The notes under the pieces: generated by a model
What the model was told of the DNA's origin: nothing
Seen by the model: the letters and a program-made list of their open reading frames with translations, nothing else
Databases searched by the model: none
Shown: positions 1 to 33,323 of the stretch, piece after piece
Numbering within the stretch: the stretch's first letter is position 1
Layout of the letters: every line of letters starts with the position of its first letter
Position numbers and translations under genes: made by a program
Source of the DNA: Balanoglossus misakiensis
Lineage: Eukaryota; Animalia; Hemichordata
Assembly: GCA_040954595.2 (NCBI GenBank)
Contig: CM082577.2
Location: 16,623,903-16,687,902 of the forward strand
Direction of reading: 5' to 3'
DNA: 64,000 nucleotides

Positions 1-2702
1 AAGTCACATGAAAAGTTGTAGCGGATTGGTCAATTTCTGGTTTATAGTGTTATGTTGGCCAGAACCTCGGATAAAAATCGTGAGGCCAGCTCGCAGACAG
101 TACAGTTGGTCGATTAATGCAGTCGGGTCCCCTGCCTCGGATGGTGTGAGATTCCCTCCAAATCTCAAATAATTCGATTATTGCTTTTTGCTATTACATA
201 TTATAATTAGTTTTATCGTTATATGCTAAACATTTTATATTTGCATAGATATGCTGATTATAACAATTATGTGCCCAATTATAAGCAGGTAAAATATCAG
301 GAAGATTTAGCGCAGAATTTTTCAAAGCTTTGTGAATTTAGCGGTGAATTAATAGCAGCTTTATGATAAGAAGCTGAATAATTTGTTGCCAGCCCGAATA
401 CTTTAAAATTCTAGAATATCTAGGACTTATCACCTCTTCGGTGGTAAATGCTCTGATGTGATAAGGTTAGGCCTCGCGAGCGAATCCGTGAGCTTCTTCT
501 AAAAAACAAAATTAATTTTTGGGGGGATGTTTAGCTTTTGCTTCAATTGGGCTCTTTGAGTGACGTTTATTGATCCGTTATTGATCGTACATTTCCTGTA
601 ATTTGCATTTGCATCACCACCACCTGGTATGTACTATAAAAGTCCCTCAAATTTATGCCACGCGGTTCTTCGATTCATTTCGTTACGCATAATCGTGCGA
701 TTCCGTTGTGGCAGTTATATGGTCCGTAGAAGACGGTGATTTTGGAGGCCTACTCCTCTCTGTTTGACTGTGTGACTTTCCTGTGAATGTTATACCAGCA
801 TTTGTAAATATTCATAAGCTCGAACTGGACATTTACATTGTAACACCGTACAAACTCTGCTAAATGCATAAAAACTCATTGAATCCGTTTTTGATGCGGA
901 CAAAATACGATAATTACATTTTTCGTGAACAAGGAATTTAGTGTTGAACTTCAATTATTTACTGCAATTTTGTTTGTACGACGGGGTTTTCTTTGTAATC
1001 GTTCCCCATGTGTGTCTATATTTGTGGAATAAATACTGGCTGCATACTGGAAATATTGAGTGCTGTACGTTCCCTGGCCCGGAAGTGACGTGTGAATATG
1101 AGCGACCTCCATTGGAGAGAACCCTTGGTCACATTCTATACGATTGATCAGGCGAGCTTCCATACCTGGAGGGTTAAATAAAAGAATTGTGCAAAATTAA
1201 TTATATGTCGGAATAACACATACATCATGGTAATAAAAGACGATAGTCACTCTTAAATGTTTCGTAGCATAATCAAGAACTTAAAACAAACTGCAATTCT
1301 ACGGACCCGCAAAATTTCCTGACGGACCAATCACCCAAAACCTACTTGGAGGTGGTGAAACCACGACGCATTGAACTTAAAAAGAGAAAAACCCAGAGGA
1401 AATTCCTGCAGACTCGTGTATCCCAAGACATCCTCGTTCACTTCCTTGGTGTGAAAAACCCGCAGATTGAACCATGACATACGGGTTCAAATTAGCTTTT
1501 TTCAAAGCAGTCTTTATCAGTCTCATGGTGGCAAGGGATGTGTCCGGATCGTTCAGTCACATGTATTTGTCGCAATTCAGTTGTGGGCACAGATGCAATA
1601 TTTAACGAAATTTATCTCAAAATGGAGCGCGGTGACCATGCGATTATATTTGACTCAGCTATGTGTAAAATTTCGTGAAAATGGCAATAGTAGAAGTTTG
1701 ATTTTTAGAAATTATCAATGCAATCCTATGGAAAGAGACACATGCGCACTGTTTACCAATGTGCGCGCAGATTTACATTTTGACACCTCGGGCGTATTAT
1801 GAATAACCATTCAGCACACGGTTATCTGGGACAGTGTCTGTGATGAGGCACAAGGACTTGTTTTTGAGCACCCTTCTCAAACCGTAAAATGCAAAGCCTA
1901 AGTTTCACTGCTATATCAGAGAGATTTACGAAGGGGGTATTTTAAAATGTATTAAAAATTTCAATTGCCAACTTCGAGATAATGCGGCTCGCTAATAGGC
2001 CTATAAGAACAATGAAGATAACTGAAGCGAGCAACTTGAGTAGGCAGACCTGTGGCAAATGTTAACATACTTTAGAACCTCATGATACTATGAAAGCAAA
2101 CCTTTTTGCATGGTCTTGTATAACCTAAGGTCAAAGTGGAATAATACAAACTGTGAGACCTTCTTATTTGTCGAAGCGGATTATATTTATACTATTCAAT
2201 TACCCAAGAATATTATGTATTATGAGGCATTCTACCCAATACACGGTGGTCTCAATTGAAACGTAATACGCTGGGAAATGTTCTTTTTAAGATAGTGAAT
2301 AGTGTTTCATCGGTTCCCACTAAGATACTCTTACCTGAACAAATGTACGCTTTACACAATTCTACACTAAATGTGTGTTGCTTGGCTACGTTTGGATACC
2401 CAAAGTAATTTTCTTTCTGTGTACAAGGTGGTATGACCGTCGGTGACAGACAAAAACACATAATAGCCCTCAAAACCTTCCAAGCCTTGCAATATTAAAA
2501 TGTGCTGCGTGGCATTTTGAAAACAAAGAAAAAAACTAGATTCACTTGTTTGATATCACCAGACTTGCCGACGTCACCCCAAGTGTGAGACGCTCCTCGA
2601 AAGTGAAGCACTGTGATAGAATGGAATGGAACGAAACTGAAGTTATTTCGCTTACGAGATGAAAAACAGTAAAGTAGCACCATTTAGTGATGAGGTAAGA
2701 GG

Positions 2703-2957
2703 AAAGCCTCTACAAAACAATAGAAAGCCACTATAAAGCAATCACTTTTAAAAATGCCGAGTAAATCGAGAGGTTGAAATCAGGGTGTAGATATCGAAGT
2801 TCGTAATTCGATTTTCGAAATTCGAATTACGAACAGGGTCTCAAGTGTTTACCAATAGTGTGCTCTTTTACTGGAATGCTAGGGAGCTAGCCACGAACTG
2901 TTGCTACATCATAACATGTGTGACCGTCTTGACATCAACGGAAAGCGTTACCATTGG
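2703..2957 (+). repeat. Left terminal inverted repeat
   Basis: Inverted copy of 14836-15090; contains the internal palindrome gttcgtaattcgattttcgaaattcgaattacgaac (~2798-2833). Confidence 0.9.
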
Positions 2958-4403
2958 AGATCCATTATTTTGTGGCGTTAAACCAGCGCGGGTAACTTTC
3001 CCGCCATACGTATTACACTGTTGTGAACTCTTAGCCAACATGTTCGCTCAAGAAAGAGGATGGAATTTTGGCGCGTACAAATAAAAGAAAGCGAGACGAC
3101 GCGACGTACCGTCCTGAGTGGGTGGTGCTTTCAATAGATCAATGCAGAGAAAAATGAGGTGAACTATTGGATATCGGGGGGGGGGGGGATAGAAAATTAA
3201 CAGATGTTTTCAGGGGGCGAGTACAAGTGGGTTCCAGTTAGCCTCGGGTGAAAAGAAGGAGAAAAAGATATCAAGGAAGCATGATTATCGTGCATCATGA
3301 TGATGCACGAAAAACGATAGAATTACCAGTAAATAACAGCAATAATAATAATACGGAAAGTACGAATTGCCGGCAATGAATTACCACCATCTTTTTAGTA
3401 GAGATATGAAGGAACCCCCCCCCCCCAAACCAATAACCCATGTCCGAAACCGGATACAAGATTATCCACTCCTTTATTGGCAACATACGAGAATTGTACT
3501 GCCACTGTTTCTTTCAAGAACTTTTAATCGATAGGTTTGCAGTCATTTTAATATCACTACAGGAATATGGAACATCCACACTCTGGTTAAACAAGGCACT
3601 TCCTACGGCAAAATCAGCAGCCTGTTAACTGCCCGATACCCAAACATGAGCACAGGTGGCTGTCATTGGTTATCCCTAAGAACGAGCACGAAGTGCGAGA
3701 AGGTCTGAAACGACTTTCGGACACAGTTCAATAAAACGTAACGAAAAAAAAAAAAAATCAATTTTGAGCGACCAAATACATACCCAGAACGATAAAATAT
3801 TCTACTGTGCATTTAATCGCCACCTTCATTAGGTTCCTTATCAGCACTAGCGTGAGTATTTCCCCAAAACTAACAACTGGGACAAAATGTACAAATGCTA
3901 CACAGATCGCCGCCATCTTGAACTACCATATCATCATACTGCGCATGCGTAAGCGTTTACGCATTCACGTTAATTTATTCACGATCTACGTTCTAAAGAT
4001 GGAGGCCATGGAAGAGGCTGTAGTGAACGGACACAATGTCATCATTCTCGGCCAGGCAGGGACTGGTAAAACCCATGCATGTGATAAAAAAATTAGCCAA
4101 AAAAATCAAAGGCAAATATACTATGACAGCTACAACAGGAATTGCAGCCAGTCTCCTGCCTGGTGGGCAAACGATACATCATTTCCTTGGCCTTATATGG
4201 ATGGGCGATTCACTAACACAGAACTCGTTGGAAAGATCAATCACGATACCGAAATGTGTCGTCTAAAAGACAACATATTAAACACCGACGTTTTGTTTAT
4301 TGATGAAATATCGATGTTGTCAGCTAAGACGTTTACACAGGTACGTAAAAAAGTCAAATCAATTTCAAAAAATTCCCAAACAAAACTAAATTGTTTCCCT
4401 GTT

Positions 4404-4593
<190 letters not shown>

Positions 4594-6418
4594 ACATGTA
4601 TAGAAAGAGAGAGAGGAGGAATTCTAATTCAAGAAACTCCCAATGAATCTAATTCTAAAAGAAACTATCTTTGTGTGTAAACATTGTTACTTTTGATATA
4701 TATTTTTATATTTTTTCTATATTTTTGTACATTCGCTTACTGTCATTAGTATTTAATATAAATTTGTTGTTTTAATATTTTTTTCTAGATTGAAACTGTG
4801 TGTCGGCTAGTGAAAGGTGTTAACCTTCCCTTTGGAGGAATTCAAATCGTACTGAGTGGAGACTTTAATCAGTTGAAGCCTGTGCCAAATGTTAGGTACA
4901 ACGACCCAGGATCATTGTGTATAGATGCTGCACAGTTCAGTGTGTTGATTCCTCATCATTTTGTACTTACAAAAGTACACAGACAGACTGAACGTGAGTT
5001 TATATAAAGGCCACTGGTCCATTTTTTTATTAAGAAAACATACGAACAATTTACATTGGGCAATGCATTACCGATTTATCAACTTAATTGTCATTTGTTT
5101 CATTTGTACAGCTGATCTGATTGAGGCAGTACACCTCTGCTGTCCAGGACGGATTTCAGATAGTGTAACTAAGTTACTAACTCGTCTGAGTAGAAAACTG
5201 CCACCTGGACCGATGGCAATGGAAGGTATGTATTGTGTATACACAAGATGATGAAATATTCACATTGCAATATTGTATTTAATATATATATGTAATTTTC
5301 AGTCTAATACAGTCTGTTCACTGTTTTCATGTAATTTTCACAGCCTAGCTTATACAGTGTGTTCATTGTGTTCGTGTCCATATGAGTTCAATCCTTGTTA
5401 GCCTTGTTTACATAAAAGTTGAAGGGTTTTGCAACTGACAATCCTGCATTAGACTTTCTCCCTCTGGATATTGAAGTCTGTCCTAGTATTACAGCATTTA
5501 CAGATGTGCAGTATGTGGCATAGTTTGGATGCGTTAAAGTTCCATTAAGTAATCCCCTTATTTGGCAAAAGTGGTTCTCTATCACATCTGAATCGAACCT
5601 TGCTGGTACTACATGACTTCCAGGATAAGATGATAGGTGTTTGTCACACACAGCCAAGAATCCTAAAATCAAGGAATCTAGGTCATCTAAGCATTCAGTT
5701 GATGGCAGTTTTCTTGATCGTTTTACCTGCGCTAGTGTACTCTCAAGTGAAGTAACTTGACTTCGCCATTTCAGGAACCAGTTATGTACATCTTTCAATA
5801 CTTCAAGTCTCCCATCAGTCATTGATGTTACAGGTCTTCTGTCACGAAATATAGAAATGAGTTGAGTGGTTTGTTTCAGGAAAGCAATAGTGCCATCTAA
5901 GTGGGTACCATCATCTAGGCTTGACTGGTAGGTCTTCATTAAATGTAGCATTTCACCATTCAGCATGTCTTCTGCTAAATGGTTTCGCATTTTTTCAGCA
6001 TTGTTTGGAGCTAGATGTGTGTCTGTTATTTTGTGGTATATGGGTCGGCTATTCACTTCCCGGTCCCAGATCACAGCACTCTGTAAATGGTCCCAAAGTA
6101 TTTCATTCCCTTGATAGGTCAGTACTCTTGTGTGTTTGCCCTCCTCATGGCCACTGCTCAATACACTATTTCTCAGTTTCTTTACATCATGAGAAAAATC
6201 TTGAACATGAATGATATCTGTACTTGGGTCTATCAAATTTGGGCTTGTGTATTTTGATTCTAGAGGGGAGCCATTGAAGTTGGACTTGATGAATTAACGG
6301 TTTTCTTCTCCGCCATCTTGCATGATGAAGTCAGTGGTGAAGGACCAGTCATGTAACTTTGCAATGATATCCCATAAAATTATGTGTAGTTCAGATGACT
6401 TAATTCCACACGTAGGAT

Positions 6419-9050
6419 CAATCAATCAAAACAAACATTTATAAAGCGCCAGAATCAATAACAATGTTATTTCCAAAGGCGCTGAAAGTATAACATCAGT
6501 GTTCGTAGGCTTTGAGAAATAGAAATGTCTTGAGTTTTTGTTTGAAAATGTTGAGACTAGAAGCGTGTTGAATGTCAGATGGCAGAGAATTCCAAAGTTG
6601 TGGCGCGACAACGGAAAAGGCACGTCCACCATATGTTTTGAGTCTGTACTTTGGTACACACAACTGGTTCCTTGAGCTGGAGCGCAGAGCACGACTAGGC
6701 TTATATGGCTTGATCAGATCCTGAATGTAGACTGGGGCAAGACGGTTGAGAGCCTTGTACGTTAGTAGTAGAATTTTGTAGTCGAGTCTGAGTCGAACTG
6801 GCAACCAATGGAGACTATGAAGAACTGGTGATATGTGGTTTGATTTCCTCGTGCGGGTAATGATTCTGGCTGCTGTATTTTGTGCTTTTTGAAGTAGATT
6901 GATACTGGATTCGGAAAGTCCGTACAGCAATGCATTGCAGTAATCCAGTTTAGATGACAAAACGGCATGTATTACTGTGAGACAAGTTTCCTTACTGAGA
7001 TATCTTCTGATGGATCCAATTCGACGTAAGTTGGCATACATCGACTGACAGGTTATTTGAATATGCTTGTGAAACATGTGAGTATTGTCGAAGGTAACTC
7101 CAATGTTGCGGGCAGATTTAACTGGTTGTATTTTACTTGAGCCAATGGTGATACTGTCGATAGGAACTGGAGAATGGTTAAATTTTGAACGGATGAGAAT
7201 AACTTCTGTTTTGGAGTCGTTGAGTTGCAACATGTTTTCCGTCATCCAGTGCTTGATGTCACAGATACCGGCCTCGATGGAACTGACAGCGGTTGATGAA
7301 TCATTTTGGGAGAAGGACAGGTATAATTGATTGTCATCTGCATATTGGTGAAATTCCAGGTCATGTTGTCGAATAAGTTTCCCTAGTGGAGAGATGTATA
7401 TGGTGAACAAAAGTGGTCCGAGGACTGACCCTTGTGGTACGCCACACTGAAGAGGACGGGGTTTACTGGTGACATTTCCAATAAGTACTGACTGATGTCT
7501 GTCCATGAGATACGATTCGAACCATTTGAGGGCGACATCTGTAATGCCAAGGTCCGAGAGCCGGTTTAACAGTAAGCTGTGGTCAATGGTGTCAAATGCA
7601 GCTGAAAGATCCAAAAGGACAAGTATGACACACTTTCCGGAGTCGAGAGACATGCAAATGTCGTCATGAACTTTCAGGAGAGCGGTTTCAGTACTGTGGT
7701 ATTGTCTGTATGCAGATTGTAGTGGTTCCAATAGTGAGTTAGCGGTGAGATAAGTGGTGAGTTGAGTGGCAATAACTTTTTCCAGGACTTTAGAGAGGAA
7801 TGGTAGATTTGAGACTGGACGGTAATTCTTTAGGATGTTAATGTCCAGAGAAGCCTTCTTGAGTAACCGGGGGGACAACGGCAGACTTGAATGCTGTGGG
7901 TACTTGTCCAGACTGAAGAGAGAGGTTTATTGTCGCAGTTATGTCTTGAAGTAGTGTATCCAGGCATTTCTTCAGTATCGAAGTTGGAAGTGGATCAAGG
8001 CAACATGATTTGGTAGGTGACTGCATGATGAGAGTTTTTATATCTTCTGCTTTTGCTTGGTTGAATGATGAAAATATGGTCGTAGTATTGGTTTCTGTAT
8101 TGATGATCTGTGGGATGTAATTAGTGGAGTTCAGGTTGTCACGAATAATCTTGATCTTGTTTATAAAATAGTCACTGAAACGTTCTGTGAGTTCACCCGG
8201 TGTAGTATGGTCAGGAAGAGATTGTGAATTCTTGGTACAAAGTGTAGAAACTAGTTTGAACAGTGATCGCTGGTTATTGGCATTCTCAGATATGAGGTCG
8301 GAATAGTAGTCACGTTTGGCCTGGCGTATTAATTTGGTCACGTGAAGACACTGTTCTTTGTAGATTTGGCGGTGGATTTCCAGCTTGGTGTTACGCCATT
8401 TACGCTCGGCAGATCTTCTATCCGTCTTTGCTTGTTTAATAGTAGCATTATACCATCTGGTGTCTGGACGAACAGTGACAGTGCGTTTCTTTACTGGTGC
8501 ATGTATATCAAGAAGAGCAGACAGTTTTGAATCATAGGTCGATATGGCTTTATGAATATTTGATGGCAGGTGAAGAAAGTCGGGAATGGATGCAACATCA
8601 TTGATGAAATCACTCATTGGGATAGCAGATATGCATCGATGTGTGACTTGGCGTCTTTCAAGCGGTGGTTTCTGAAATACCAGCCTTGCATGAATTGGAA
8701 AGTGATCTGAAAGACTGTGGCAATCGATGGATATTGCTTTGATGACTTTTTCAGAATTAGTAATTATCAGGTCGAGGGTGTGGCCTTTTACATGTGTTGA
8801 GTCGCTTATCCATTGCTTTAAACCAAATGAGTCGATGAGATCTTTGAACTTCACAGCTGTAGCATTGTGCGGATCATCCAGATGCAAGTTGAAGTCGCCA
8901 ACAATGAACAGGTTGCCTGTATTTGGAACAAGCTTTTCAAGTGTATTTCCAAACTCCGTTAGGAATTGCGATGTTGTAAATTTGTTTTTGTTATTCGGGG
9001 GTGGGCGATAGACGATGAGCAGTTTCAGAGAAATTCCGTTGTGCTGTACA
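6419..9050 (-). mobile_element. 5'-truncated L2/CR1-group LINE (partial APE endonuclease + RT) inserted into the P transposase
   Basis: ORFs 7838-9121 (IVYRPP, GDFNLH, GHTLDLI, SDHF) and 6496-7878 (NYRPVSNL, LLDLSAAFDTIDH, GVPQGSVLGP, YADD), with one frameshift near 7870. (TTGA)n 3' tail at 6419-6428. AGGAT is duplicated at 6414-6418 and 9051-9055; removing the insert restores transposase CHYP|TCGIKSSELH. Confidence 0.93.
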
Positions 9051-12000
9051 AGGATAATGACATATGGGAAAGCGAAAGCCAGTATATCCCAGGAATGTAA
9101 ATTGGATAGCTTCTGTCGCAAGTTTGCGTGTTACTTTCCCCTCTTTCAAGATTTGGAGGTTAAAGGCCTCTTCTCCAATATCCACCCATCCTATAAGCTT
9201 GGGTTGTCCACCCCTCATTGACAAAACAAGATCTTGTTGTACCTTTGTTTCATCGTGGATAAGACCACCAGCCCAGCCATGTTTTGGAATGTTGGCCTCC
9301 TTTGCTGCTTTGTACATCCATTCAAAGACTTTATCATCAATCCCAGGTGTTTTGTGGAACCATATTCTTGTATCGTGTCAGTAGTCTGCCAGATGGCAAA
9401 ATTAACATGTTACTATCTCGTAAATCATGGTAAGTCTTGGGACTTCTCACCCAAATATTTAAACATAAACTTATGATTTCTTTTTTCCATTGCCGTTGGG
9501 TAGGTGTTTTGCAGCGTACAGCATCGTATTGGCTTTGGAGCAGTAACTTCATTTGCTCTGATGCATCTGAAAATATCAGATTTAATATAGAACTGAGGTC
9601 TTGGTGGTCTTCTTCATCAAGTGTTAATTCTTCCTCTGTTTCTGGGGAAGTATCCAGTGAATCATCACTCTTTTGGTTCAAGTTCAGTTGACATCTAAGC
9701 TGACAGTTTCGGCAAGTTTCTGTAAAGCCATACCAGCTCAGTACTTGATCACAACTATTGTGTCGAAACATCTTCTGAAGGGTAATTTTCATTACCTTTA
9801 ACACTAATTTGTTCGACTGTGCATTTATGGAGATAGTTCTTGGGATCTTTAATTTTGTTCAAGTAATTAGCTGCAGCAACACCCTTACAAATCTTAATTG
9901 TCTCCACCACAGACACAATGTCAGCAACTGTCATCTTGTTTAAAGTGGCTAGGTCTGAATCAATACCAATACTACTCAAGTCAATGGCCTTGCCTCTGAC
10001 TTGTAGTTCCCAGTGATATTTATACACAAGAACTTGTTTTAAGATCATATTACCATTGCTTATGATATCTGTAGGAACAGCAAACTGAATGTAATCATTG
10101 TGACATCTTGGTAAAATAACCACTGTATCAGGCATATGGTGTCTGGGATCATTCAAGGAAAGACTGTCAATACAGGTATCTTGTGTGGACACATGCTTCC
10201 ATTCTATACCTCGGTACACCATCACCGTCTTTCTTGTTTTGGAATCGTGCTTAGTATGTTTAGTCATATTGGGAAATAGCTTTTTGAGTGTTCTTCCATG
10301 CACAGATGGTTTTAGGTCAGTGCTTAAAGCATTTTACATTTACCCCATAGCACATCTTGGCGGATAGATCCTGTTTGCGACTCCTTAATATTATCTTTCA
10401 ACCTGTTGAAACAAAAAAGGAAATCAACAGTAAGTATGGTGATGTGAATAAATAATATAGCACACAATTGATTAAATAAATTATTAATTCAAAGTTTTTG
10501 TTTTCCCTTGCAGGTAGAGCAAAGGCATACAAATCTGTAGATTTTGGTGATCCAAAACTGTTAGCAACATGTTCAGCCCCAAAGACTCTACATCTGAATG
10601 TGAGTGCCCCTGTCATTCTGGTTGCTAACATATCAGACAACTTATTCAATGGTCTCCAAGGAGAAGTTGTTGATTTACAGGACGACAAAGTGTCTGTGAG
10701 GTTTCCTACAATTGGAAGATGTATACCATAAGTAGACACAATTTCCAGGTCTACAGTCCTGAAAAAAGATGTGCGGTTGCTAACAGAAAGCAATTTCCAA
10801 TGAAGTTGGCATTTGCCATGACTGTTCATCGGTCACAGGGTCTAACGATTGACAAGGTCGAAGTAGACTGCTGGAACATGACACAGAAGGGACAGATCGG
10901 TGTTGCAATAGGTAGGGCAAAAGTGAAGAAAAGTCTTCGGGTCCTCAACTTCAAGCCAGGTTTTATTTACCCCCAGCCACCTGCAATAACCGAGTTTTAT
11001 AGCAGAGGAAAAGTAACAGCCAAAGATGATCTGTCATGCTGCAGAAGGGAAATTATTCCTGGAACAGTTGATGTTATTGTTGAGAATAAGGAAGAAGACT
11101 TGGAAGATGTACAACCACCCACTGCAGATGAGTTGGACGAACTTCTAGAGGATGTTGATGACCAAGATGGAATCACTGGTACTGACGAACCCTCTATGTC
11201 TAGTAGTAGTGATGGTGGGGGTGGTGATTTTGGTGCTAAGGTTGAAGAAACCTGCCTGCCAGATGATGTCATACCTGACATCGATTTTTACAGGGTTAAC
11301 AGCTATGAAAACCCACTTACTGATGAACAGCGTGATATGAATGCACAACGTTCATACCTTGGTAATGAGAGCCAGAAAGTAAAGGAGTTCTGCCAGATAG
11401 TGTGGCGAAAAATAATCGAAGCATTTGAGAGCTGTATTCCATCCTCCAATCAGAAAGTGAACAACAAACACACAACAGCATTATATAAAGAATTCACCAA
11501 GCTTCTACAGAGTGATGGCTACAAGAAGTGTGTTGGTGTGTTGTTCAATGTGAAGATACCATCATCGCAGCATTTCAGGACCACATTTGTTATGACAAGA
11601 CACATCAGAGAGAGAGTAATCTGTAAGAGTGTGGAGAAAATAAAGGCGAAGGCTGTTGAAAAATGCAGTAAAGGTGGAAAGAAATTCAAAGGTTCATCAG
11701 CTGGACGAGGCAAAATACGATACATTGGTGGTTGGTGCCTGGCCAAACTAAGGTATCAGAAGAAAAAGGGTGTCATCAGAAAACTGTACAAGAAGAAGTG
11801 TGAAAAGCAAATGGAAAGACTTGACACAGAAATAAAGGTATTGGAACAACTGATAGACACAGAAGACAACTTGTTATCAACTTCTGAAGAACAAGACACA
11901 CTAACAGAGACAAGAAGAAAACAATATGCCAGGGGAGGGCTCACCAACATTACAGACAGTGCTTTCCATTTCTTTGAACACTTAGATACAGAAGTGAGAC

Positions 12001-12298
12001 AGTTAGAGAACATGGACAATGTGGCCCTGTATGGTCCAACTCTATACCAATTCATCACAAAGAAAATTAAGAATGATAAAGCTATGGTGGACCAGTGGAT
12101 GTCTCTATTCAACAAGCCTGGCGCAACAGATTCTACTGATGGTGAAGAAACACACGGAATTGACAGTACCAGTAGTGCTGATGACAAAAGTATCGAAAAA
12201 GAAGACAATGGTGACAAGATTGATAATGGTTATGATGTTGGTGTACGAGAAACGGATATTGATGGAGGTGGAAAACATGGTGATGAATTGTCTGGTGG

Positions 12299-12331
12299 TG
12301 ATGGTGATGATGATGATGATAATGGGGATGG

Positions 12332-12362
<31 letters not shown>

Positions 12363-12460
12363 AATGATAATGATGATGATGATGATGATGATAATGATGA
12401 TGATGATGATGATGATGATGAAGATGACGAAGATGATGATGATGACGAAGATGATGATGT

Positions 12461-12491
<31 letters not shown>
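12299..12491 (+). repeat. (GAT)n coding trinucleotide repeat giving a poly-Asp tract
   Basis: In frame within ORF 10719-13097; roughly 60 mostly Asp residues. Confidence 0.95.
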
Positions 12492-13799
12492 ATATCTGGT
12501 CGACAAGACAGACATGATGTTAATGATTTAGGATGTTATGATCAAAAGAATGTTGACAGCGATACATCTGACAATGATACTATAGTTATAGCTTTGTATG
12601 AAGAGGTTATTAATAGGTATGTTAAAATGTCATGTGCATCATTCAGAAAAGAATATTTGAGACGTGTGAAAACAAAAAAAGAGGAAGCACACAGAAAGCA
12701 GGTTAAAATCCGTAAAGGTGGCCCAAGACTCCCAAAGAATACAAGCAGAGTATCCACCATTCCTAAAACCTTTGGTTTCAGTGATATATTAGCAGACAAA
12801 AGTGTTGGGAAAACTAAATCACATACTACACTTCAGACAGAACTTGCATCAAATCCACATTATTTCAACACAAAATCAATCACTAAAAGCCAGTTACAAT
12901 TGTTGTGCAAGTGTTACGAATTAACAATGTCTTCAAAGTTGACAAAATCCCATATAGGTTCTCAGCTAAGGGAGAAAATCATGTCCTCTACAAAAATGAA
13001 CAAACCAGATGTGTTGGGTGGTAAGATTTTATGTTTCAAATACATGTGCAGGTGTTTTCCATGCACAAATTGTTTTAAATTGTTATTTATTTTTTGATAA
13101 AATTGTTGTTAGGTTTGACCACATTTGAGTTAACTTAATGTAGAAGGATAAGGAAAGAATACAGTTCAATCTGTTATGTATTATTACTTTAAGTTGCCAA
13201 ACGGTAAGATTTACCACCTGCATGACATTTCTGCTAACTGCATTATTGTTTTTCAATGTGACATACAATTTGCATGTATCAGTGGCATGGGCATGCTCAG
13301 TTTTGTTTATTTTTTGTAAATGCTGTTTTCAACTTTACTATCAAGTTACAAATAACCATATTCAAATAGAAAGTAATGTTATACATGTACTTTTTTAAGT
13401 TGTTTGTTTTACATACATTGCTAATATTAATCATACATTAAAATATATTTATTCATAATCTCTTGCAGAAATTCAACACAGTTCAGAGCCAACAGGTAGT
13501 AACACAACAGTCTCTCAAGTTCATGCGTCAACATCAGCACCATATACAAAACGAAGACGTGTGGTGAAATGGCCTTGTGGAAAATGTGGAGATTGCTGTC
13601 TGGCCAACAGTATTTGTTGTGACAAGTGTGACAAGTGGTTCCACTACGCTTGTGTTAATATCAACGAAGATGTTATCGATTCTTTAGAAGATGAAACATG
13701 GTATTGCTCCAACTGTCTAAAATGAGAACATTTTGAGGGATTTAAAATGCTTCTTAGAACTCTACTAGACATGGTGAAATGTGTGATCATGTAAACATG

Positions 13800-13806
13800 T
13801 GCGTGC

Positions 13807-13838
<32 letters not shown>

Positions 13839-13854
13839 GTGAGTGTGTGTGTGT
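13800..13854. repeat. (GT)n microsatellite
   Basis: Imperfect GT run next to the predicted transposase splice donor. Confidence 0.9.
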
Positions 13855-14562
13855 TACCTATGGTCAATATAAGACATCCAGATTGGTTGTTTCTTCCACT
13901 AGATACATGGATGCTAGGTCGAAAACATTCCCACTCAAAACGTTCAATTGCACAGTGGTGACCGGTGTTTGCAATTGAAATATTTCATCGCATATACGTA
14001 TACGGATCGCCATCCCGACCCCTTGTAGGCCTACCTCCTCAGTTCGACTGACACTGGCCCTGTCGCTGTCTGATCAGACCTTGCACAACTAATTAAATAT
14101 TTATGAAATATAAAGTTTTAACCAATGAGGTACCGGGATAGGATGCAAAACGTTAACGACACTGATTTATTAGTGTGGTTGCTAAGAAGCGCTAATGACA
14201 CTGATCTATTTTAGTGACGTTGCTATATCACAGCGTCCGCTTCGATACCAAAAATCGGTTTAAATGTAGCAATATGTCAACTTTAAGAATGTGCGCGCAC
14301 TAAGAGCGAATCTGTCTCTTTCAATGGTAATATATGGAAAAACCGCTTCATTTTTACACATAGTTCTGTCAAAAGAAATTAATTTTACTGATCGCATAAA
14401 ACTATATGGTCGCCGTGCTTAGCACGTTGACACCGGTGTTTTATTTCCAAAAATGGTATAGTGTTATTGCTGTCAGTATAAACGGCGCTGCGAAATAAAG
14501 CCCCGCAAATAAATAAATAAATAAATGTAAAATGCGGGGGCGCTCCATATCGTGCATGACAG

Positions 14563-14820
14563 GGGGGGGGGGGGTTACTCCCATAGGAAGGTGTCAGTAT
14601 GGGTAAGTGCCACTCGGAAGTGTTACTTTTTCACGGAAAAATCTCCAAACGTGGGTTGTCTTTTCATCCGAAAATCATCATGTACATGGTAAATAAACAT
14701 TTTTTGCTCCGATTTTGTCCCGAACAACGGTTCTGTTTTGACAAAATACATGGGTAGATATGTTTTCAATTCGGGTCGGGTCGCACACCCCCGTACGAAA
14801 ATAGTGGGAGCCTCCCCCTC
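14563..14820. mobile_element. Small degenerate MITE-like insertion with G-rich/C-rich ends
   Basis: Starts ggggg-ttactcccata and ends tagtgggagcctccccc (imperfect inverted ends); lies just inside the right TIR and has no counterpart at the left end. Confidence 0.4.
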
Positions 14821-14835
14821 TGAAAAATGGTTACG

Positions 14836-15090
14836 CCATTGGTTACGCTTTCCTTCGATATCAAGACGGTCACACATGTTATGATGTAGCAACAGTTCGT
14901 GGCTAGCTCCCTAGCTTTCCAGTAAAAGAGCACAGTATTGGTAAACACTTGAGACCCTGTTCGTAATTCGAATTTCGAAAATCGAATTACGAACTTCGAT
15001 ATCAACACCCTTATTTCAACCTCTCGATTTACTCGGCATTTTTAAAAGTGATTGCTTTATAGTGGCTTTATATTGTTTTGTAGAGGCTTG
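14836..15090 (-). repeat. Right terminal inverted repeat
   Basis: Inverted copy of 2703-2957. Confidence 0.9.
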
Positions 15091-16412
15091 CGATTCAAAA
15101 AAACGCCAAAAAGCGAATTCGTTGGTCTCAATATAGTTTAGAATTTCACTTGGCCGCACGGATCGCGGTATCAATGAAGCAACTTCAAAAAGGCCACGTA
15201 AATTTCATAGGTTACATCAAATGAATTCAATTATAGCAAAATAGTCTCTATGCTAGTAATATCAAACATATCTAGCAGGGGATGTGTGCTTTTTGAGCTG
15301 TTTTCGTGACTTTTGTTTGGTATGAAAAGCTGTTCATGTTGTTTGACTACTTGAAACATACTGAAATACTCGTAAACCATACCCAATCTCTGCATCGTAT
15401 ATAAGACAAGAGTGAACATTCGGTGAAACAATTTATGGTCACTACCCAGTTGTTCAATGTTGAGACAACATTTGTCTATATACAGTATTGTATAATGTTT
15501 AGACCACAATGGGCTTGTGATAAGACCTCAGAGTGTGGATTCCTTTCATGTTATAGCTGTGACGTTCATGTCTTGTTCCCAGTGTTCAGAGAGACCTTGC
15601 TTACAAATATGTCATATCAAGCAGTCTTCACACAGAGTGGAGGTTTTCGTGCAGACGACTTTGATGTTTCCTAAAATCTAAAGTGGAAAATTTGCAACGA
15701 AGCCGCATTGACAATCTTGGAGAACCAATATGGCGGTATGCATGCATGAATGACGTAACCTGTCCCTGCCAGGTCCTGTCCCTGGCCTGTACCCTGGCTT
15801 GTCCTCTTCCGTGCCATACCAAGGGTTGTATTGTTAGGGTTTCGAGACCAGAGGGGTCTCGAAACCCTCTTGAAATCGTGTTGTTTTTTATTATTATTAT
15901 TATTATTATTCTTCTTCCCACTTTTAAAAACAGCCGCTATTCGAAGACCGTTGCACCCAATGACTTGAAATTTGGCTCATAGGTAAAACTCAAAGCAAGT
16001 AATTTTCTGATCATGTCACTATGGCAACAGGTCACATGACGTGGCAGCCATCTTGGATTTAAACTTTTAAATTGGTCTAATTTGCATAAAAAATGAAGAA
16101 TCCAAATTCTGTTCAGAAACTTTGTGGACCATATGGCCAGGGTCCTCTATGCCAAATTTCAATGTCTAAGTCCTTGCCGATTTTGAGGAGATGATTTTTA
16201 AAGCATTATTTTTCATATTTTCCATGACCATTGGACCCAGCCATTGGCCTATACTTTCCATGGTTAAGCAATGGCCCCCTAGGATTTTAGACTTATGCCC
16301 AATATCTCAACATCCGCTGGGCTGATCAGCTTCAAATTTTGTGTGCAGCTAGCCTACCTTCAGACAATCAGTTCCAACTGGAAAAAATAATATGGAAAAT
16401 CGACCGATTTTT

Positions 16413-19400
16413 TTAGGGCACAAGCCCAGCAGGCTTGTGCCCTATTGTTTTTACTGGAGTTTTTCTTCTTCTTCTTCTTGTGCCGTTTTTTTCGTCAAGT
16501 ACATCTTGAAAACGGCTGAACCTACAAATCTCAAACTTGGCACAATGGTGCAGGCCAATAAGAGCATGAGCTGTACCCTTGTGAATGTTTAATAAGTCAT
16601 GTGACCTGATGACCATATTTGGGCAAAATTTTCAAATCGGCCTTATTTGCATATGCATGGAGATATCAAAATTCTTTTAGCAACTTTTGCTGACCATGGG
16701 GTCATTGTCCTACATGCCAAATTTCAAGGCCATAGGCCATGTCAATTTTGAGAAGAAGATTTTTAAGTATTATTTTTCATATTTTTCGCCCAAGCTATGG
16801 GCCTATACGTTACATAGTAAAGCTATGACCACATATTATTTTGGATAAATATGCATACATATCTCAAAATCATCTCAAACTTTGGTGTGCAGCTAGCCTA
16901 GCATTTGTCAATCATTTTAAGCGAAAAAAAAATAATATGAAAAATCGACCGATTTTTTTATATTAATGTTTTAAATTAAATTTATACCTTTTTACTTAAA
17001 GGTATACGGTCACCTCCAATTTACATATCGCCATATATAGTTGAAATGGCGTATTTGAGTGTTCTAAAGAACGCTTTATTTTCGCGTGTGCCACCCACTG
17101 AAAATCTGTGATTGGTTAGATCTCGATTTACCATGGTAACTGTGGCTAAATTTGTATAGGTGACCGTATACCTTTAATATACCTCTATAGTTAAGCTATG
17201 TACACGTCTTAGTGTGGAATTCTGGTCTGTGCAACGGTCCTGTACAGTGACTGTCTATTGGGCAGTGAGCACAATGGGACCAAAATAACAGGCAAAATTT
17301 CGGGCTCACCTGTAACACCTGCTTAACTAATGAATTATGTGCATACCTAATTCTGGGCTAACTAATAAGCCTAGAGGTTTTGTTCTTGTGGGACATGGAC
17401 CAGTATGAGGTCAAAATTTCTTGCCCAAATTTTGGGTGACCTCAGGTGACCTTTCACCTACTTTACCATATCTTGGCATCCAGAGCAGGTACAGACTTGG
17501 TGTTTGAAGGGTTGGGACTAAAATTGAAAAGCAAAAATGGGGGTCACCTGTGACACCTGCATATCTCATTAATTATGTGCATACCTAATTCAAGGCTAAC
17601 CAATAGGGCTATAGGTTTGGTTTTTGTTGAACATGGACCGGTATAGGGTCAAAATTTCTTGCCCAAATTTTGTATGACCTCAGGTGACCTTTGACCTACT
17701 TTACCATATCTTGGCATCCAGAGCAGGTACAGACTTGGTGTTTGAAGGGTTGGGACTAAAATTGAAAAGCAAAAATGGGGGTCACCTGTGACACCTGCAT
17801 ATCTCATTAATTATGTGCATACCTAATTCAAGGCTAACCAATAGGGCTATAGGTTTGGTTTTTGTTGAACATGGACCGGTATAGGGTCAAAATTTCTTGC
17901 CCAAATTTTGTATGACCTCAGGTGACCTTTGACCTACTTTACCATATCTTGGCATCCAGAGCAGGTACAGACTTGGCGTTTGGAGGGTTGGGACTAAAAT
18001 TGAAAAGGCAAAATTGGGGGTCACCTGTGACACCTGCCTACATCATTAATTATGTGCATACCTAATTCCAGGCTAACCAATAGGGCTATAGGTTTGGTTT
18101 TTGTTGAACATGGACCAGTATAGGGTCAACATTTCTTGCCCAAATTTTGCATGAACTCAGGTGACCTTTGACCTACTTTACCATATCTTGGCATCCAGAG
18201 CAGATATGCTTATTGCTATGTTGCTATGTGCTATGTTGGCTTGGGCCCGCTATTGCTGCTTGCAGCTATATTTCTTCTTCTTCTTCTTCTTCTTGTGCCG
18301 TTTTTTTCGTCAAGTAGATCTTGAAATCGGCTGAACCTACAAATCTGAAATTTGGCACAATGGTGCATGCCTATGAGAGCTTGAGCTGTACCCTTGTGAA
18401 TGTTTAATTAGTCATGTGACCTGATGACCATATATGGGCAAAATTTTCAAATCGGCCTTATTTGCATATGCATGAAGATATCAAAATTCTTTTAGCAACT
18501 TTTGTGGACCATGTGGTCAGGGTTCTACATGCCAAATGTCAGGGCCATAGGCCATGTCAATTTTGAGAAGAAGATTTTTAAGTATTATTTTTCATATTTT
18601 TCACCCAAGCCATGGGCCTATACTTTACATAGTACAGCTATGACCACATATTATTTTGGATAAATATGCATACATATCTCAAAATCTGTTAGGCCGATCA
18701 TCTCCAACTTTGCTGTGCAGCTAGCCTAGCATTTGTCAATCATTTTAAGCGAAAAAAAATAATATGAAAAATCGACCGATTTTTAAAAAAAAAATTTTAA
18801 AATTAAATTTATACCTTTACTTATACCTCTATAGTTAAGCTATGTACACGTCTTAGTGTGGAATTCTGGTCTGTGCAATAGTCCTGTACAGTGACTGTCT
18901 ATTGGTGTGTGAGCACAATGGCACCAAAATAAAAGGCACAATTTTAGGCTCACCTGTAACACCTGCTTAACTCATTTATTATGTGCATACCTAATTCTGG
19001 GCTAACTAAGAGGGCTAGAAGTTTTGTTCTTGTGGGACATGGACCAGTATTGGGTCAAAATTTCTTGCCCAAATTTTGGGTGACCTCAGGTGACCTTTGA
19101 CCTACTTTCCTATATCTCGGCATCCAAAGCAGGTACAGACTTGGCGTTTGGAGGGTTGGGACTAAAATTGAAAAGCCAAATTGGGGGTCACCTGTGACAC
19201 CTGCATATCTCATTAATTATGTGCATACCTAATTCCAGGGTAACCAATAGGGCTATAGGTTTGGTTTTTGTTGAACATGGACCAGTATAGGGTAAAGATT
19301 TCTTGCCCAAATTTTGCATGACCTCAGGTGACCTTTGACCTACTTTACCAGATCTTGGCATCCAGAGCAGATACAGAATTGGCGTTTGGATGGTTTGGAC

Positions 19401-19679
19401 TAAAATTGAAAAGCCAAATTGGGGGGTCACCTGTGACACCTGCCTACCTCATTAATTATGTGCATACCTAATTCCAGGCTAACCAATAGGGCTATAGGTT
19501 TGGTTTTTGATGAACATGGACCAGTATAGGGTCAAAATTTCTCGCCCAAATTTTGCATGACCTCAGGTGACCTTTGACCTACTTTTCCATATCTTGGCAT
19601 CCAGAGCAGATATGCTTATTGCTATGTTGCTATGTGCTATGTTGGCTTGGGCCCGCCATTGCTGCTTGCAGCTATATTT
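16413..19679 (+). mobile_element. Related HINE-like element nested inside the first, present as a head-to-tail dimer (16413-18273, 18274-19679), with ~238 bp satellite units
   Basis: 5' hairpin agggcacaagcc...ggcttgtgccct, then (CTT)n. The 3' end ggcttgggccc...gctgcttgcagctatattt occurs at ~18239-18273 and again at ~19644-19679. Inserted in a T-run (cgattttttt|atattaatttt). Confidence 0.75.
17000..17173. mobile_element. Kolobok-type MITE with TTAA target-site duplication
   Basis: ttaa|aggtatacggtcacct ... aggtgaccgtatacct|ttaa (16 bp perfect TIR); absent from the paralogous site at ~18810-18830. Confidence 0.9.
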
Positions 19680-22060
19680 ATATTAATTTTTTTATGAAAT
19701 CTATACCTATACTTATTCCACTATACTTAAGCTATGGCCACATAGTTTTGTAGAATTCTGGTCGGTGCAATAGTCTGCAGCATAGGACCAAAATAAGAAG
19801 CCAAATTTAAGGCTCACCTGTGACACCTGCTTAACTCATTAATTATGTGCATACCTAATTCCAGGTAAACCAATAGGGCTACAGGTCTGGTTTTTGTCGG
19901 ACATGGACCAGTATGGGGTCAAATTTGTTTCCAAAATTTTGGGTGACCTTGGGTGACCTTTGACCTACTTTCCCATATCTCAGCATCCAGAGCAGGTACT
20001 GCTCAGGTGTTTGGGTGGATGGGACCAAAATAAGAAGCCAAATTTAAGGCTCACCTGTGACACCTGCTCAACTCATTAATTATGTGCATACCTAATTCCA
20101 GGCAAACCAATAGGGCTACAGGTCTGGTTTTTGTCGGACATGGACCAGTATGGGGTCAAATTTTTTCCCCAAATTTTGGGTGACCTTGGGTGACCTTTGA
20201 CCTACTTTCCCATATCTCAGCATCCAGAGCAGGTACAGCTCAGGTGTTTGGGTGGATGGGACCAAAATAAGAAGCCAAATTTAAGGCTCACCTGTGACAC
20301 CTGCTCAACTCATTAACTATGTGCATACCTAATTCCAGACAAACCAATAGGGCTACAGGTCTGGTTTTTGTCGGACATGGACCAGTATGGGGTCAAATTT
20401 TCTCCCCAAATTTTGGGTGACCTTGGGTGACCTTTGACCTACTTTCGCATATCTCAGCATCCAGAGCAGATACAGCTTAGGTGTTTGGGTGGATGGGACC
20501 AAAATAAGAAGCCAAATTTAAGGCTCACCTGTGACACCTGCTTAACTCATTAACTATGTGCATACCTAATTCCAGGCAAACCAATAGGGCTACAGGTCTG
20601 GTTTTTGTCGGACATGGACCAGTATGGGGTCAAATTTTCTCCCAAAATTTTGGGTGACCTTGGGTGACCTTTGACCTACTTTCGCATACCTCAGCATCCA
20701 GAGCAGGTACAGCTTAGGTGTTTGGGTGGATGGGACCAAAATTAGAAGCCAAATTTAAGGCTCACCTGTGACACCTGCTTAACTCATTAACTATGTGCAT
20801 ACCTAATTCCAGGCAAACCAATAGGGCTACAGGTCTGGTTTTTGTCGGACATGGACCAGTATGGGGACAATTTTTTTTCCCAAACTTTGGATGTCCTTGG
20901 GTGACCTTTGACCTACTTTCACATATCTCGGCATCCAGAGCAGGTACAGCTTAGGTGTTTGGGTGGACGGGACCAAAATAAGAAGCCAAATTTTAGAGTC
21001 ACCTGTGACACCTGCCTAACTCATTAATTATGTGCATACCTAATTCCAGGCAAACCAGTAGGGCTACAGGTCTGGTTTTTGTTTGACATGGACAAGTATA
21101 GCGTAAACATTTTCTGCTCATATTAAGCGTGACCTCACGTGACCTTTGACCTACTTTTCCACATCTCAGCATCCACAGCACATACACCCTTGGCATTTGG
21201 AGTGATAGAACAACTAATGCAGTAATTAAATATGCACAAATCTATCTCCAGGCGAACCAATAGGGCTAGTAGTGTCTCGAAACCCGCTTATTGCTGTTCA
21301 CAGCTATATTTTAAATCTTTTTTGAATTTTCATAATTTTCTGGTGTCTGGAAGTACTCTTGTGGTGTTTTTGACATCTGTGATTGCCATGCTTATTTTTT
21401 TTTGAATTCATATTTGAATTTTCGTTATTCTAGGCATGTCTTGGTTGTATTTGGTTATCTGATGAAGCTGATTCACTACACATACAGAAGAAGTCCCTCT
21501 TCAAGCAAATTATGTCTTTGCACGCGCATCTGTCACTTTTTGAACGTGGACATAAAGTTCTTTATTAAGAACGATGATAGCTTAATAGGTCTTGAGCACC
21601 TTGTGAAAAATCACATCAAATTCATTTTTTACCACTCACAAGTGTTCATTCAGTAATCCAACATGACAACACTTTTATGGCAAAGGAACATTTTACGTTA
21701 TATGTCAAGCGTATTGGTTTATTTAACACATGTATGGTGCAAATACATTCAGCAGGCAAAGTTGAATCATGACGTCATTATCAATTCTGTAACAAAACGT
21801 TTGCCCCACATAAAACATATAGTAGTAGTTTGTCATTTTATAAATTAAATCAATTATGAAGTCAGTTACACGACGCAGATATGCCCGTTTTCATTTTTTA
21901 AATTTAAGATACATCTATTCTAGCACCTGAATTACATCGTTTGCTTAATCACAGACCAAAACCTTTTCAGCGATCATAATGATCAATGGGTTTGTATTGC
22001 CAGATTAAGAGTGAACAACATGTCGAAAATCTTGATGAAATACACTTCATGAACTCTACT

Positions 22061-29785: not shown

Positions 29786-32700
29786 TGCCGTTAATCAGAA
29801 TTTTTGGTAAGGAAGGTTTGAGAAGTCCATACTATGTAAAAAATGGTGCCGATTCCAAAAAAGTCAGTCTTTTTTACCCCACTCAAGACAAAATTGCCAT
29901 TTTGGCCATTTTTAACCCAAAAAAGGTCATTTTAGAAAACATTAAAAACACACTGGGATTTGATGACATATGATATGTTTATTCTATGTAAAATTTGGTG
30001 AATAATACGAAAAAAGCAGTCAGATTGACCCAAAACAACACAAAATTGCCTTTTTGACCATTTTTTGCCCCAAAAACGTCATTTTTAGAAAAAAATTAAA
30101 ACACACTGTTTTCTTCATAATGATTTATCTGGTGATATATAGAAAGTCAATTCTATGTTAAAAGTGGTGACTTTAAAAAGTAAAGCAGTTTTTTTACCTC
30201 AATCAATACAAAAATGCCATTTTTGGCCACTTTTTGAGGTCAAAAAAGGTCATTTTTACAAAAAAAACTAAAAACAAATTGTTTTCTTCATATTCAGAGA
30301 TCATTTGATATGAAATGTTCATTCTACGTAAAAAATGCTGATTCCAGAAATAGCAGTCTTATTGACCCTATTCAAGAAAAAATGCCATTTTTGACACTAT
30401 TTGCCCAAAAAACGTCATTTTTAGAAAAACACTCAAAACTTATATATTTTCTTCACTTTCGGAGATCTGATAATATGAGGTTATCGCCCCATATCACCTC
30501 TTGTTGGGCCATATTTGCCGCGAGTGTGGGTTGTGAGCCGCATCACACGAGTCGAAGAAATTAGAAAAAAAAATTAAAAACAAACTTTTCTTCATAAAGT
30601 TCAGAGATCATGTGATATATGAAATGTTCATTCTATGTAAAAAATGGTGCTAATTCCGGAAATACCAGTCTTATTGACCCTCCTCAAGACAAAACTGCCA
30701 TTTTTGACACGTTTTGCCCAAAACGTCATTTCTAGAAAACACTCAAAACTTACATATTTTCTTCACTTTCGGAGATCTGATAATGTATTAAATGCCCACA
30801 CTTCGTGTGAACAATTTCCAAAAAAGCAGTTTTATTGATGCCACTCTAGATAAAAGCGCTTTTTTGGCAAGTTTTTGCCCAAAAAGCCACTTTTCGAAAA
30901 TCATTAAAAACAAACTGTTTTCTTCTTATTCGGAGATTCTATGATGTGTGAAAAGTACATTTTATGTAAAATAGGTGTTGTTTCCAGAAATGCAGTCTTA
31001 ATGACCTCAGACATGATGAAATCGCCTTCTTGGCTAAGTTTTGCACAAAATTTTTATTTTTAAGAATATATTAATAGCATTCTCTTTTCTTCACTTTCGG
31101 TGATCTTATTATAAATAAAAGCCCATTCTATATTGAACCGTGGGTACTGTTCCCAAAACGGAAGTCTTACTTACCCTATTCAATAGAAAATTGTCATTTC
31201 GGCCACTTTTTGGTCAAAAATGTTCATTAAAAACAAACATACTAAAGACAAACTGTTTTCTTCATATTCAGAGATCTGATCATGTATGAAAAGTCCATTC
31301 TGTGTGAAATTTTAGCAATAATGGACGACGCCCTGACCATTAACGTTTGTTTATGGGCAAGGGCGAGGGGAAAGCCAAAAAATTCATGGGCGGGGCTTCG
31401 GCATGAATTTTGGCTTTCCTCGAGCCCGCGCCCATAAACAAACGTTAATGGTCAGGGCGGAGTGGGTTATTTCCATTATATTACCAACGAAGTCAAGAAA
31501 ACCGTCCAAATTTACGAAAATGACCCACTAGGGGCCCCGGAACTTGTGTTACGCAAAGTGTTGCATTCACTGACCTGTTTGCTAATATTACTATTCAGAT
31601 TTACAGGCGTGTAAACAAACCATTACTGAGTATTTGTGGTCAGTGACGTCGTCAATCTCGACCAATGAAAATGCGACGCACAGGCCATGGTAATATAATT
31701 GGTAGCTATTCCAAAAACGGCAGTCTAGTTGGCCCCACTCTAGTCAAAATTGCCTTTTTGGCTATTTGTATCCAAAAATAGATCTAGTCAAGAAAAAATT
31801 ATCCTTTTAGCCATTTTGTACCGAAAAAATGTTTGTATTTGGAGTTTTTGCAAAATTAGCCCAAGTTGAACTCATAATAATGATGAAACAGCGTCGAGAG
31901 AAAAAGAAGTTACCAATTGAACAAAACTCTGGTATCAGCATATTTTTTGCAAAAAAAAGAGGAATTTCCATAATCACAAGAGCTCTTTGTTAAGAATATG
32001 AAGAAATAAGTTTGTTTTTATTCTTTCTCACAGTTACCTTTTTGAGCAAAGAGGCCAAAATGGTACTTTTTCCCTCTGTGGGGTCAGTGAGAGTGGGGGT
32101 TTTAAATGTCACTACTTTCAAGATAGAATAGACTTTTATTTATCATTAGATCACCAATGGGAAGAAAATGGCATATTTGTAGTATTTTCTAGAAATGACA
32201 CTTTTTGGGCAAAAACTTGTCAAAAAAGCGCTTTTATCTTAAGTGGCATCAATAAAACTGCTTTTTTGGAAATTGTTCACATAGAGTTGGCATGTAATAC
32301 ATTATCAGATCTCCGAAAGTGAAGAAAATATGTAAGCTTTGGGTGTTTTCTAGAAATGACGTTTTGGGCAAAAAGAGTCAAAAATGGCAGTTTTGTCTTG
32401 AGTAGGGTCAATAAGATTGGTATTTCTGGAATGAGCACCATTTTTTACATAGAATGAACATTTCATATATCACATGATCTTTGAACTTAATGAAGAAAAG
32501 TTTGTTTTTAATTTTTTTCTAAACATGGCCTTCTTGGGAAAGGCATTTTTGCATTAGGTTGGTTCAATAAATCTTCTTTTTTTGGAATAATCACCAAATT
32601 TTAGATAGGGCGGGCATATAAAACATTATCAGATCTCCGAAAGTTAAAAAAATATATAAGTTTTGAGTGTTTTTCAAAAATTGACGTTTTTGGGCAAAAA

Positions 32701-33323
32701 GTGGCAAAAATGGCATTTTTTCTTGAGTAGGGTCAATAAGACTGCTATTTCTGGAATCAGCACCATTTTTTACATAGAATGAACATTTCATATATCAAAT
32801 GATCTTTGAATATGAAGAAAACAATTTGTTTTTAGTTTTTTTTGTAAAAATGACCTTTTTTGACCTTAAAAAGTGGCCAAAAATGGCATTTTTGTATTGA
32901 TTGAGGTCAAAAAACTGCTTTACTTTTTAAAGTCACCACTTTTAACATAGAATTGACTTTCCGTATATCACCAGATAAATCATTATGAATAAAACCGTGT
33001 GTTTTAATTTTTCTTCTAAAAATGACGTTTTTTGGGCAAAAAAATGGTCAAAAAGGCAATTTTGTGTTGTTATTCACCAAATTTTACATAGAATGAACAT
33101 ATCATATGTCATTAAATCTCAGAATGACACGAAAACAGTGTGTTTTTAGTGTTTTCTAAACATGACTTTTTTGGGGTTAAAAATGGCCAAAATGGCAATT
33201 TTTTCTTGACAATTTTGTCTTGAGTGGGGTCAATAAGACTGACTTTTTTGGAATCAGCACCATTTTTTGTTACATAGAATGGACTTCTCAAACCTTCCTT
33301 ACTAAAAATTCTGATTTACGGCA
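29786..33323. mobile_element. Foldback-type non-autonomous element with >1 kb modular inverted arms
   Basis: tgccgttaatcagaatttttggtaaggaaggtttgagaagtcc... mirrors ...ggacttctcaaaccttccttactaaaaattctgatttacggca. Arms (~29786-30900 vs ~32190-33323) are built of ~125 bp AT-rich subrepeats. No ORF. Confidence 0.85.
31313..31699. mobile_element. Long-hairpin non-autonomous element nested in the foldback
   Basis: Stem cgccctgaccattaacgtttgtttatgggc ... gcccataaacaaacgttaatggtcagggcg; second inverted pair attatattacca / tggtaatataat; GC-richer than the surrounding arms. Confidence 0.6.

Follow-up and report, generated by a model that had tools for sequence, protein, structure and literature searches.

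Why does a P-element-like transposase gene lie in reverse orientation inside an intron of a PIF1 helicase gene, and do the two form one transposon? The question is raised by a 64,000-nucleotide stretch of DNA from the hemichordate Balanoglossus misakiensis (NCBI GenBank assembly GCA_040954595.2, contig CM082577.2, positions 16,623,903 to 16,687,902, forward strand), which we call the window. Both genes are enclosed by a single pair of terminal inverted repeats (TIRs), at 2704-15089, in a 12.4-kb element. The transposase is nested in the helicase gene, carries a splice acceptor that is conserved among relatives and is truncated, and the two genes are linked across many relatives. We consider it probable that this is a decayed two-gene transposon of the P superfamily, its transposase lying antisense in an intron of the PIF1 helicase gene and likely split, with the C-terminal domain predicted on the helicase protein. 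The element and its two genes are laid out as follows.

2704-2969, plus strand: left TIR, pairing with the right arm
3999-4340, plus strand: helicase exon 1, with Walker A (4050-4073) and Walker B (4299-4316); frameshifted
4789-4993, plus strand: helicase exon 2, with motif III at 4858-4875
5112-5225, plus strand: helicase exon 3, ending at the donor of intron 3, which hosts the transposase
5388-10402, minus strand: transposase body, with RFX-like winged helix, helix-turn-helix (HTH) and RNase H domain with GTP-binding insertion; frameshifted
6414-9050, minus strand: later long interspersed nuclear element (LINE) inside the transposase, 5'-truncated, with endonuclease, reverse transcriptase and a 5-bp flanking repeat
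10514-13020, plus strand: helicase exon 4, with 2B domain and motifs V-VI, then a P-C-terminal-like domain at about 11697-12713
13469-13725, plus strand: helicase exon 5, with PHD finger and stop
14823-15152, minus strand: right TIR, comprising the paired part (14823-15089) and a probable outer end near 15152

Self-BLAST of 2001-16000 returned only the TIR arms of the element, which are 254-267 nt long and 95-96% complementary to each other, and a palindrome inside them; within this interval the transposase has no bounding repeats or TIRs of its own in the helicase intron. The left TIR of this copy has probably lost its outermost ~62 bp, since the window sequence upstream has no match to 15090-15160, and the right end of the element probably lies near 15152, because divergent copies in the DNA runs X1 and X2 remain similar as far as 15150-15158. 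Ends in the P superfamily have the form 5'-CA...TG-3'. Whether the right end is placed at 15090 or at 15152, its letters are CAAG, as they are near the TIR start of a related locus (L045); on the left, where such a terminus would be read, this copy is incomplete. Frameshifts and stop codons interrupt both genes, and since X1 and X2 contigs vary at some of these sites there must be several copies or alleles. The 2.6-kb LINE interrupts the transposase body but was inserted later, since an X2 contig connects 6413 directly with 9051 and the transposase flanks are in frame with one another. Both ends of the element are CpG-rich (observed/expected 0.8-1.6, against 0.1-0.5 at 13000-13900), making the convergent promoters that the initial annotation had proposed plausible, and 60-90 bp upstream of helicase exon 1 are motifs that we take to be NRF1- and YY1-like.

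The transposase body lies wholly in helicase intron 3 (5226-10513), as had been described, 162 bp from its donor (AAG/GTATGT at 5225/5226; slashes within motifs mark exon-intron boundaries) and 110 bp from its acceptor (TTGCAG/G at 10513/10514). The catalytic D/D/E motifs are intact in the window (9257-9243, 6320-6309 and 5588-5568), and the protein terminates about 63 residues past the catalytic E, with an ATTAAA at 5283. Among homologues, the named ones of which come from oysters, pearl oyster, scallop, mussel and sea cucumber, the RNase H DDE core with its GTP-binding insertion is matched by PF21787, and in P0050 by PF21788. The transposase profile matches chain A of the Drosophila P transposase (6p5a_A) with an E value of 1e-10, up to residue 564, and the model of one relative (P0025) matches the same chain by fold (E 3e-19, TM 0.81 by target length). 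A Pfam scan of 10 transposase homologues gave no THAP match; RFX (PF02257) scored above cut-off in two of the 10 and weakly in two, and the RFX5 match of the profile was weak (E 0.8). Fifty-two homologues terminate 32-95 residues (median 74) after the catalytic E, tails that leave no space on the transposase for a 118-residue C-terminal domain. Judged from sequence, the element belongs to the P superfamily by its DDE core and TIRs and departs from it in having neither a THAP domain nor a C-terminal domain on the transposase chain.

The helicase gene occupies the plus strand from 3999 to 13725 in five exons, the last of which ends it with a PHD finger. The PIF1 SF1B motifs are present in the window, and in the homologue P0011 the helicase and its 2B domain are matched by PF05970 and PF21530; no Rep/HUH domain was matched on the helicase in the Pfam scan. 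A conserved helical domain following the helicase core was modelled from ten homologues (pLDDT 85.8), and among 48,161 chains the C-terminal domain of Drosophila P (6p5a_B) ranked first as its structural match (Z 8.9, rmsd 3.4, 115 of 118 residues aligned), the next match reaching Z 7.3 over 76 residues. Foldseek gave no match, and a second comparison was run over Foldseek's 663 chains, a set without 6p5a_B; Pfam, a PDB sequence profile and the ESM Atlas also returned nothing for this domain, nulls that do not exclude a P relation. Among 145 new top matches to the domain, 46 had a helicase core and none had a transposase. The helicase protein is thereby predicted to bear a domain of the P C-terminal fold, and because the transposase is without exactly the domain that this best fold match supplies, the modelling suggests a transposase likely split over two genes and coupled with a helicase motor. 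In the sections consulted of a review of P elements (PMC7776569), the Drosophila domain is helical, is attached by a flexible linker and touches both target DNA and the single-stranded DNA of the transposon, so its shift to a second chain would be structurally easy. In the window, a long Asp-rich repeat expansion (12150-12570), in frame and not in the aligned homologues, lies within the helicase-borne domain.

We collected 84 related loci (80 retained out of 101 that were confirmed in metagenome contigs, and 4 from genome contigs), many of which are near-copies. Helicase pieces are present in 35 of them, all 90 helicase matches being antisense to the transposase, and the helicase is present in 22 of the 26 loci with at least 1.5 kb beyond the transposase end. 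Long TIRs also surround both genes in L009 and L045. Ten of the 35 loci are nested (three seen on both sides) and 25 are tail-to-tail. L001 has the same layout as the window, at the same intron and with the same exon 3 donor, which L002 and L003 share with one side seen. The transposase of L011 is nested at the intron after the helicase core, as in L014, L022, L025, L081 and L083 (one side seen), and that of L082 at the intron just after Walker A; in L011 and L082 helicase pieces stand on both sides, at two introns other than the window's, so that the transposase body is hosted at three different helicase introns across relatives. The shared TIRs, the L001 layout, the helicase carriage and the uniform antisense orientation support a single co-evolved unit and no chance nested insertion, in keeping with the initial annotation, which had also asked whether the intron layout was conserved. 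As tail-to-tail relatives with the same two genes exist, interlocking is not required to keep them together, and the split transposase would be the likelier reason. In L001 (5930-5952) the transposase stop is only ~22 bp from the helicase donor, so that the transposase 3' untranslated region (UTR) must overlap helicase exon 3. Loci L081-L084, which are intron-containing and of animal type, come from Sedimenticola metagenome-assembled genomes, probably as host contamination. Among viral contigs, 36 pattern matches gave no confirmed locus.

The 5' end of the transposase bears on whether the genes are interleaved as well as nested. The sites concerned are these.

10403-10513, neither strand: 110-bp gap between two back-to-back acceptors, with no usable donor
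13215-13243, minus strand: rival first coding exon in helicase intron 4, with ATG, nine codons and TG/GTAAAT; completes a Trp codon
13858-13898, minus strand: micro-exon proposed initially, with ATG at 13877, donor AG/GTAACA and a possible weak acceptor at 13898; Arg at the junction
14034-14400, minus strand: CpG-rich subterminal region on the right, likely with the promoter of the transposase and a 5'-UTR exon that ends at the 14034 donor

The acceptor at 10403/10402, proposed in the initial annotation, proved genuine: inspected by eye, 15 of 20 related loci have AG/G at the same protein position, and the other five (L004, L009, L013, L019 and L084) have no recognisable transposase 5' end. 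Its recurrence means that the transposase requires an upstream exon, and none of the three GT dinucleotides in the 110-bp gap between the two opposite-strand acceptors, whose back-to-back placement was likewise borne out, is donor-like. With an acceptor conserved in relatives and no donor in the gap, it is very likely, as far as sequence can tell, that the transposase transcript starts across helicase exon 4 or beyond, i.e. that the two genes interleave.

The full arrangement built on the initial annotation is more specific, and we regard it as a rather doubtful possibility. It has a promoter near the right TIR, a UTR exon to 14034, the micro-exon (13898/13877-13858), a 3.5-kb intron over helicase exons 4-5 and an overlap acting as a mutual on/off switch. 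A coherent chain of donor, acceptor and donor is present in a CpG-rich region, a hydrophobic residue stands three positions ahead of the junction, as it does in relatives, and L025 has a first-exon candidate in a similar place, about 170 bp beyond its helicase end. On a rough donor matrix, the 14034 donor is the best of its region and the micro-exon donor ninth among 279; the UTR exon itself is likely only. The letters of the micro-exon are indeed there, but 601 of 1000 shuffles of non-coding DNA contained a Met-containing phase-2 micro-exon at least as good (a 60% chance level), the 13898 acceptor is weak, and the junction would read Arg in place of the Trp whose codon relatives complete there. 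Trp stands at this junction in the oyster model XP_011412758.3, in contrast to the Arg of unspliced reads from its cluster, and also in P0045, P0050, P0180 and P0021. The exon at 13243-13215 does complete Trp and is rarer by chance (57 of 1000 shuffles as good), and neither a good acceptor nor a CpG-rich promoter adjoins it. Short Met-to-TG/GT exons are found in the tail-to-tail loci L030 and L045 and in the nested L025, there beyond the helicase end. Either candidate, 13877-13858 or 13243-13215, would interleave the two genes; the switch is not needed, given the 25 tail-to-tail loci. A start codon itself split as AT/G fits L001 only and gains no support from the Trp in other relatives.

Less probable, and in our view unlikely, is a neutral relic, in which the transposase came to lie in a helicase intron through a rearrangement that splicing tolerated and that lineages then inherited, the genes being linked only by their shared TIRs and the helicase domain being merely P-like. 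The fold score is moderate and the sequence identity 13%, and the layouts follow the transposase tree: each multi-member nested layout is set apart by a branch (SH-aLRT 99 and 94), with tail-to-tail loci spread over several branches (FastTree and quick trees; six near-duplicate tail-to-tail rows were dropped from the transposase tree and the p-AU test). Against this, the domain absent from the transposase is the top fold match of the helicase, and the linkage persists across deep branches. A neutral layout is compatible with a split transposase, and the two conflict only where the split is denied. Simple nesting, in which the transposase promoter and first exon lie inside the same helicase intron and were lost or became unrecognisable in a decayed copy, is quite improbable. 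This copy is decayed, and L011 and L002 do have TG/GT donors close upstream, but with no in-frame Met; the acceptor-to-acceptor gaps of the window, L001 (390 bp), L025 and L082 (both ~320 bp) contain no passing TG/GT donor, and the long frames of L001 are open, so decay does not account for its gap. That an independent P-like element landed by chance in a PIF1 gene of the host or of a Helitron, a reading for which the window's wealth of nested elements (including a Helitron-like one at ~48.5-53.5 kb) might speak, is extremely improbable and already largely refuted, there being no ends around the transposase, shared TIRs, no Rep domain on the helicase and the same layout kept by L001 at 47% protein identity.

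Several observations weigh against a two-gene P transposon with interleaved genes and a split transposase. Transposition in the P superfamily is GTP-dependent, makes a 17-nt staggered cut and leaves an 8-bp target-site duplication; none was found at 2703/15090, where the outer left end appears lost. The Z of 8.9 for an all-helical domain at this identity falls in the range that the tool rates as possibly unspecific. Four of the 26 loci with room for a helicase have no helicase match. Searches upstream in L001 (3.6 kb), L011, L082, L002, L081 and L083 gave no convincing Met-to-Trp exon, a null partly due to contig ends, and L011 has a strong TG/GT donor, with no Met, within its 1.4-kb gap. The identity of the first coding exon is divided: the micro-exon is somewhat favoured, at less than an even chance, and the Trp-ending exon in helicase intron 4 and something else altogether are each a little less probable. 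A single origin of nesting is not rejected either (p-AU 0.30), but to account for three intron positions nesting must have arisen three times or the positions must have shifted later. The helicase tree is concordant where supported and otherwise poorly resolved. Finally, in the Holothuria gene model P0021 the transposase runs into helicase exon 3 onward on one strand, which, taken at face value, implies that the two genes share one orientation in a member of the clade to which the window belongs.

Under the two-gene, split-transposase reading, each gene would be transcribed inward from its own CpG-rich end, and the transposase pre-mRNA would cross helicase exon 4, and probably exon 5 as well, in antisense. 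The transposase core would bind the ends through its RFX-like winged helix and then cut, and the helicase protein would dock through its C-terminal domain, bringing the PIF1 motor to the ends, where processing and disassembly of the complex would occur, and the PHD finger to chromatin. The interlocked order may derive from a tail-to-tail ancestor, likely by tandem doubling or self-insertion followed by reciprocal loss: if one copy of a doubled element lost the 3' part of the helicase and the other lost the transposase body, the interleaved order would result, with the first transposase exon left at its TIR and the body free to fall in any helicase intron. A broader proposal, which we hold only tentatively, is that of a widespread, undescribed P lineage of marine invertebrates whose transposase has two subunits and is assisted by a motor: one gene would supply the catalytic core, and the PIF1-PHD gene the C-terminal domain that holds DNA. 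Its genes would have been repeatedly zipped into each other's introns, at three helicase introns and here possibly twice (with the first exon in helicase intron 4), and convergent transcription would set the ratio or the timing of the two halves.

The architecture is real, conserved and unusual. As in the Drosophila P element and THAP9 (PDB 6P5A and 6PE2; sections consulted of PMC7776569), HTH, RNase H with GTP-binding insertion, D/D/E and TIRs are present, and a C-terminal-domain-like fold is predicted in the element; unlike in these systems, an RFX-like winged helix replaces THAP and the C-terminal domain is off the transposase, predicted on the second gene. The element further differs from the P element in its added PIF1 helicase and PHD finger, its antisense nesting, its TIRs (~260 bp versus 31 bp) and its length (12 kb versus 2.9 kb). 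KolobokH, Kolobok-1_CCri and AcademH also join a DDE transposon to an accessory helicase, in one case encoded on the opposite strand, but they belong to other transposase superfamilies, Kolobok helicase-carrying transposons bear RecQ, and neither nesting nor a split domain is described in the parts consulted of PMC9587614 and PMC10045372. Compared with KolobokH and AcademH, the helicase here is PIF1 and the transposase P-like. The AcademH helicase, too, is reportedly RecQ. Maize MuDR (PMC3440606, in the sections consulted) shares two genes convergently transcribed from promoters in long TIRs (~215 bp) with antisense RNA, and so gives a precedent for convergent transcription out of such repeats, but its mudrA and mudrB are tail-to-tail, it is of the Mutator superfamily and it has no helicase. 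Helitrons likewise carry a PIF1-family helicase, fused to Rep/HUH and without TIRs, in contrast to the TIRs, DDE transposase and Rep/HUH-free helicase found here. The result listings and abstract openings searched showed no P element with PIF1, and a term search in PMC8788227 came up empty; Repbase, which was outside that search, may already hold such families.

P elements are textbook one-gene transposons. If a lineage does carry the C-terminal domain on a helicase, the role of that domain becomes directly testable, as does whether a motor aids end processing or transpososome disassembly, a step called uninvestigated in the part of the P review consulted (PMC7776569). The same two genes stand tail-to-tail in some relatives and nested at one of three introns in others, a natural series in which one can compare how interleaved antisense genes arise and what they cost. 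The architecture also accounts for gene models that were assembled wrongly, the fused Holothuria protein among them.

Elsewhere in the window, a decayed Helitron-like element unrelated to the P-like one (48560-53500, minus strand) retains OTU-like, DUF6570, Helitron_like_N and PIF1 pieces. Open reading frames (ORFs) for YqaJ/alkaline exonuclease, a type found in some DNA transposons such as KolobokE and carried also by ISL2EU, lie at 40512-41982 (plus strand), and a retrotransposon gag with zinc knuckle at 42976-43794 (plus strand). A 416-aa ORF at 45845-47095 (plus strand) has no Pfam match and by eye resembles a Penelope-type RT/GIY-YIG tail. At 17300-20000, 29800-33050 and 58500-63200 the window contains satellite-like tandem arrays, together with a large nested inverted repeat and with repeats present three times at 2158-bp spacing.

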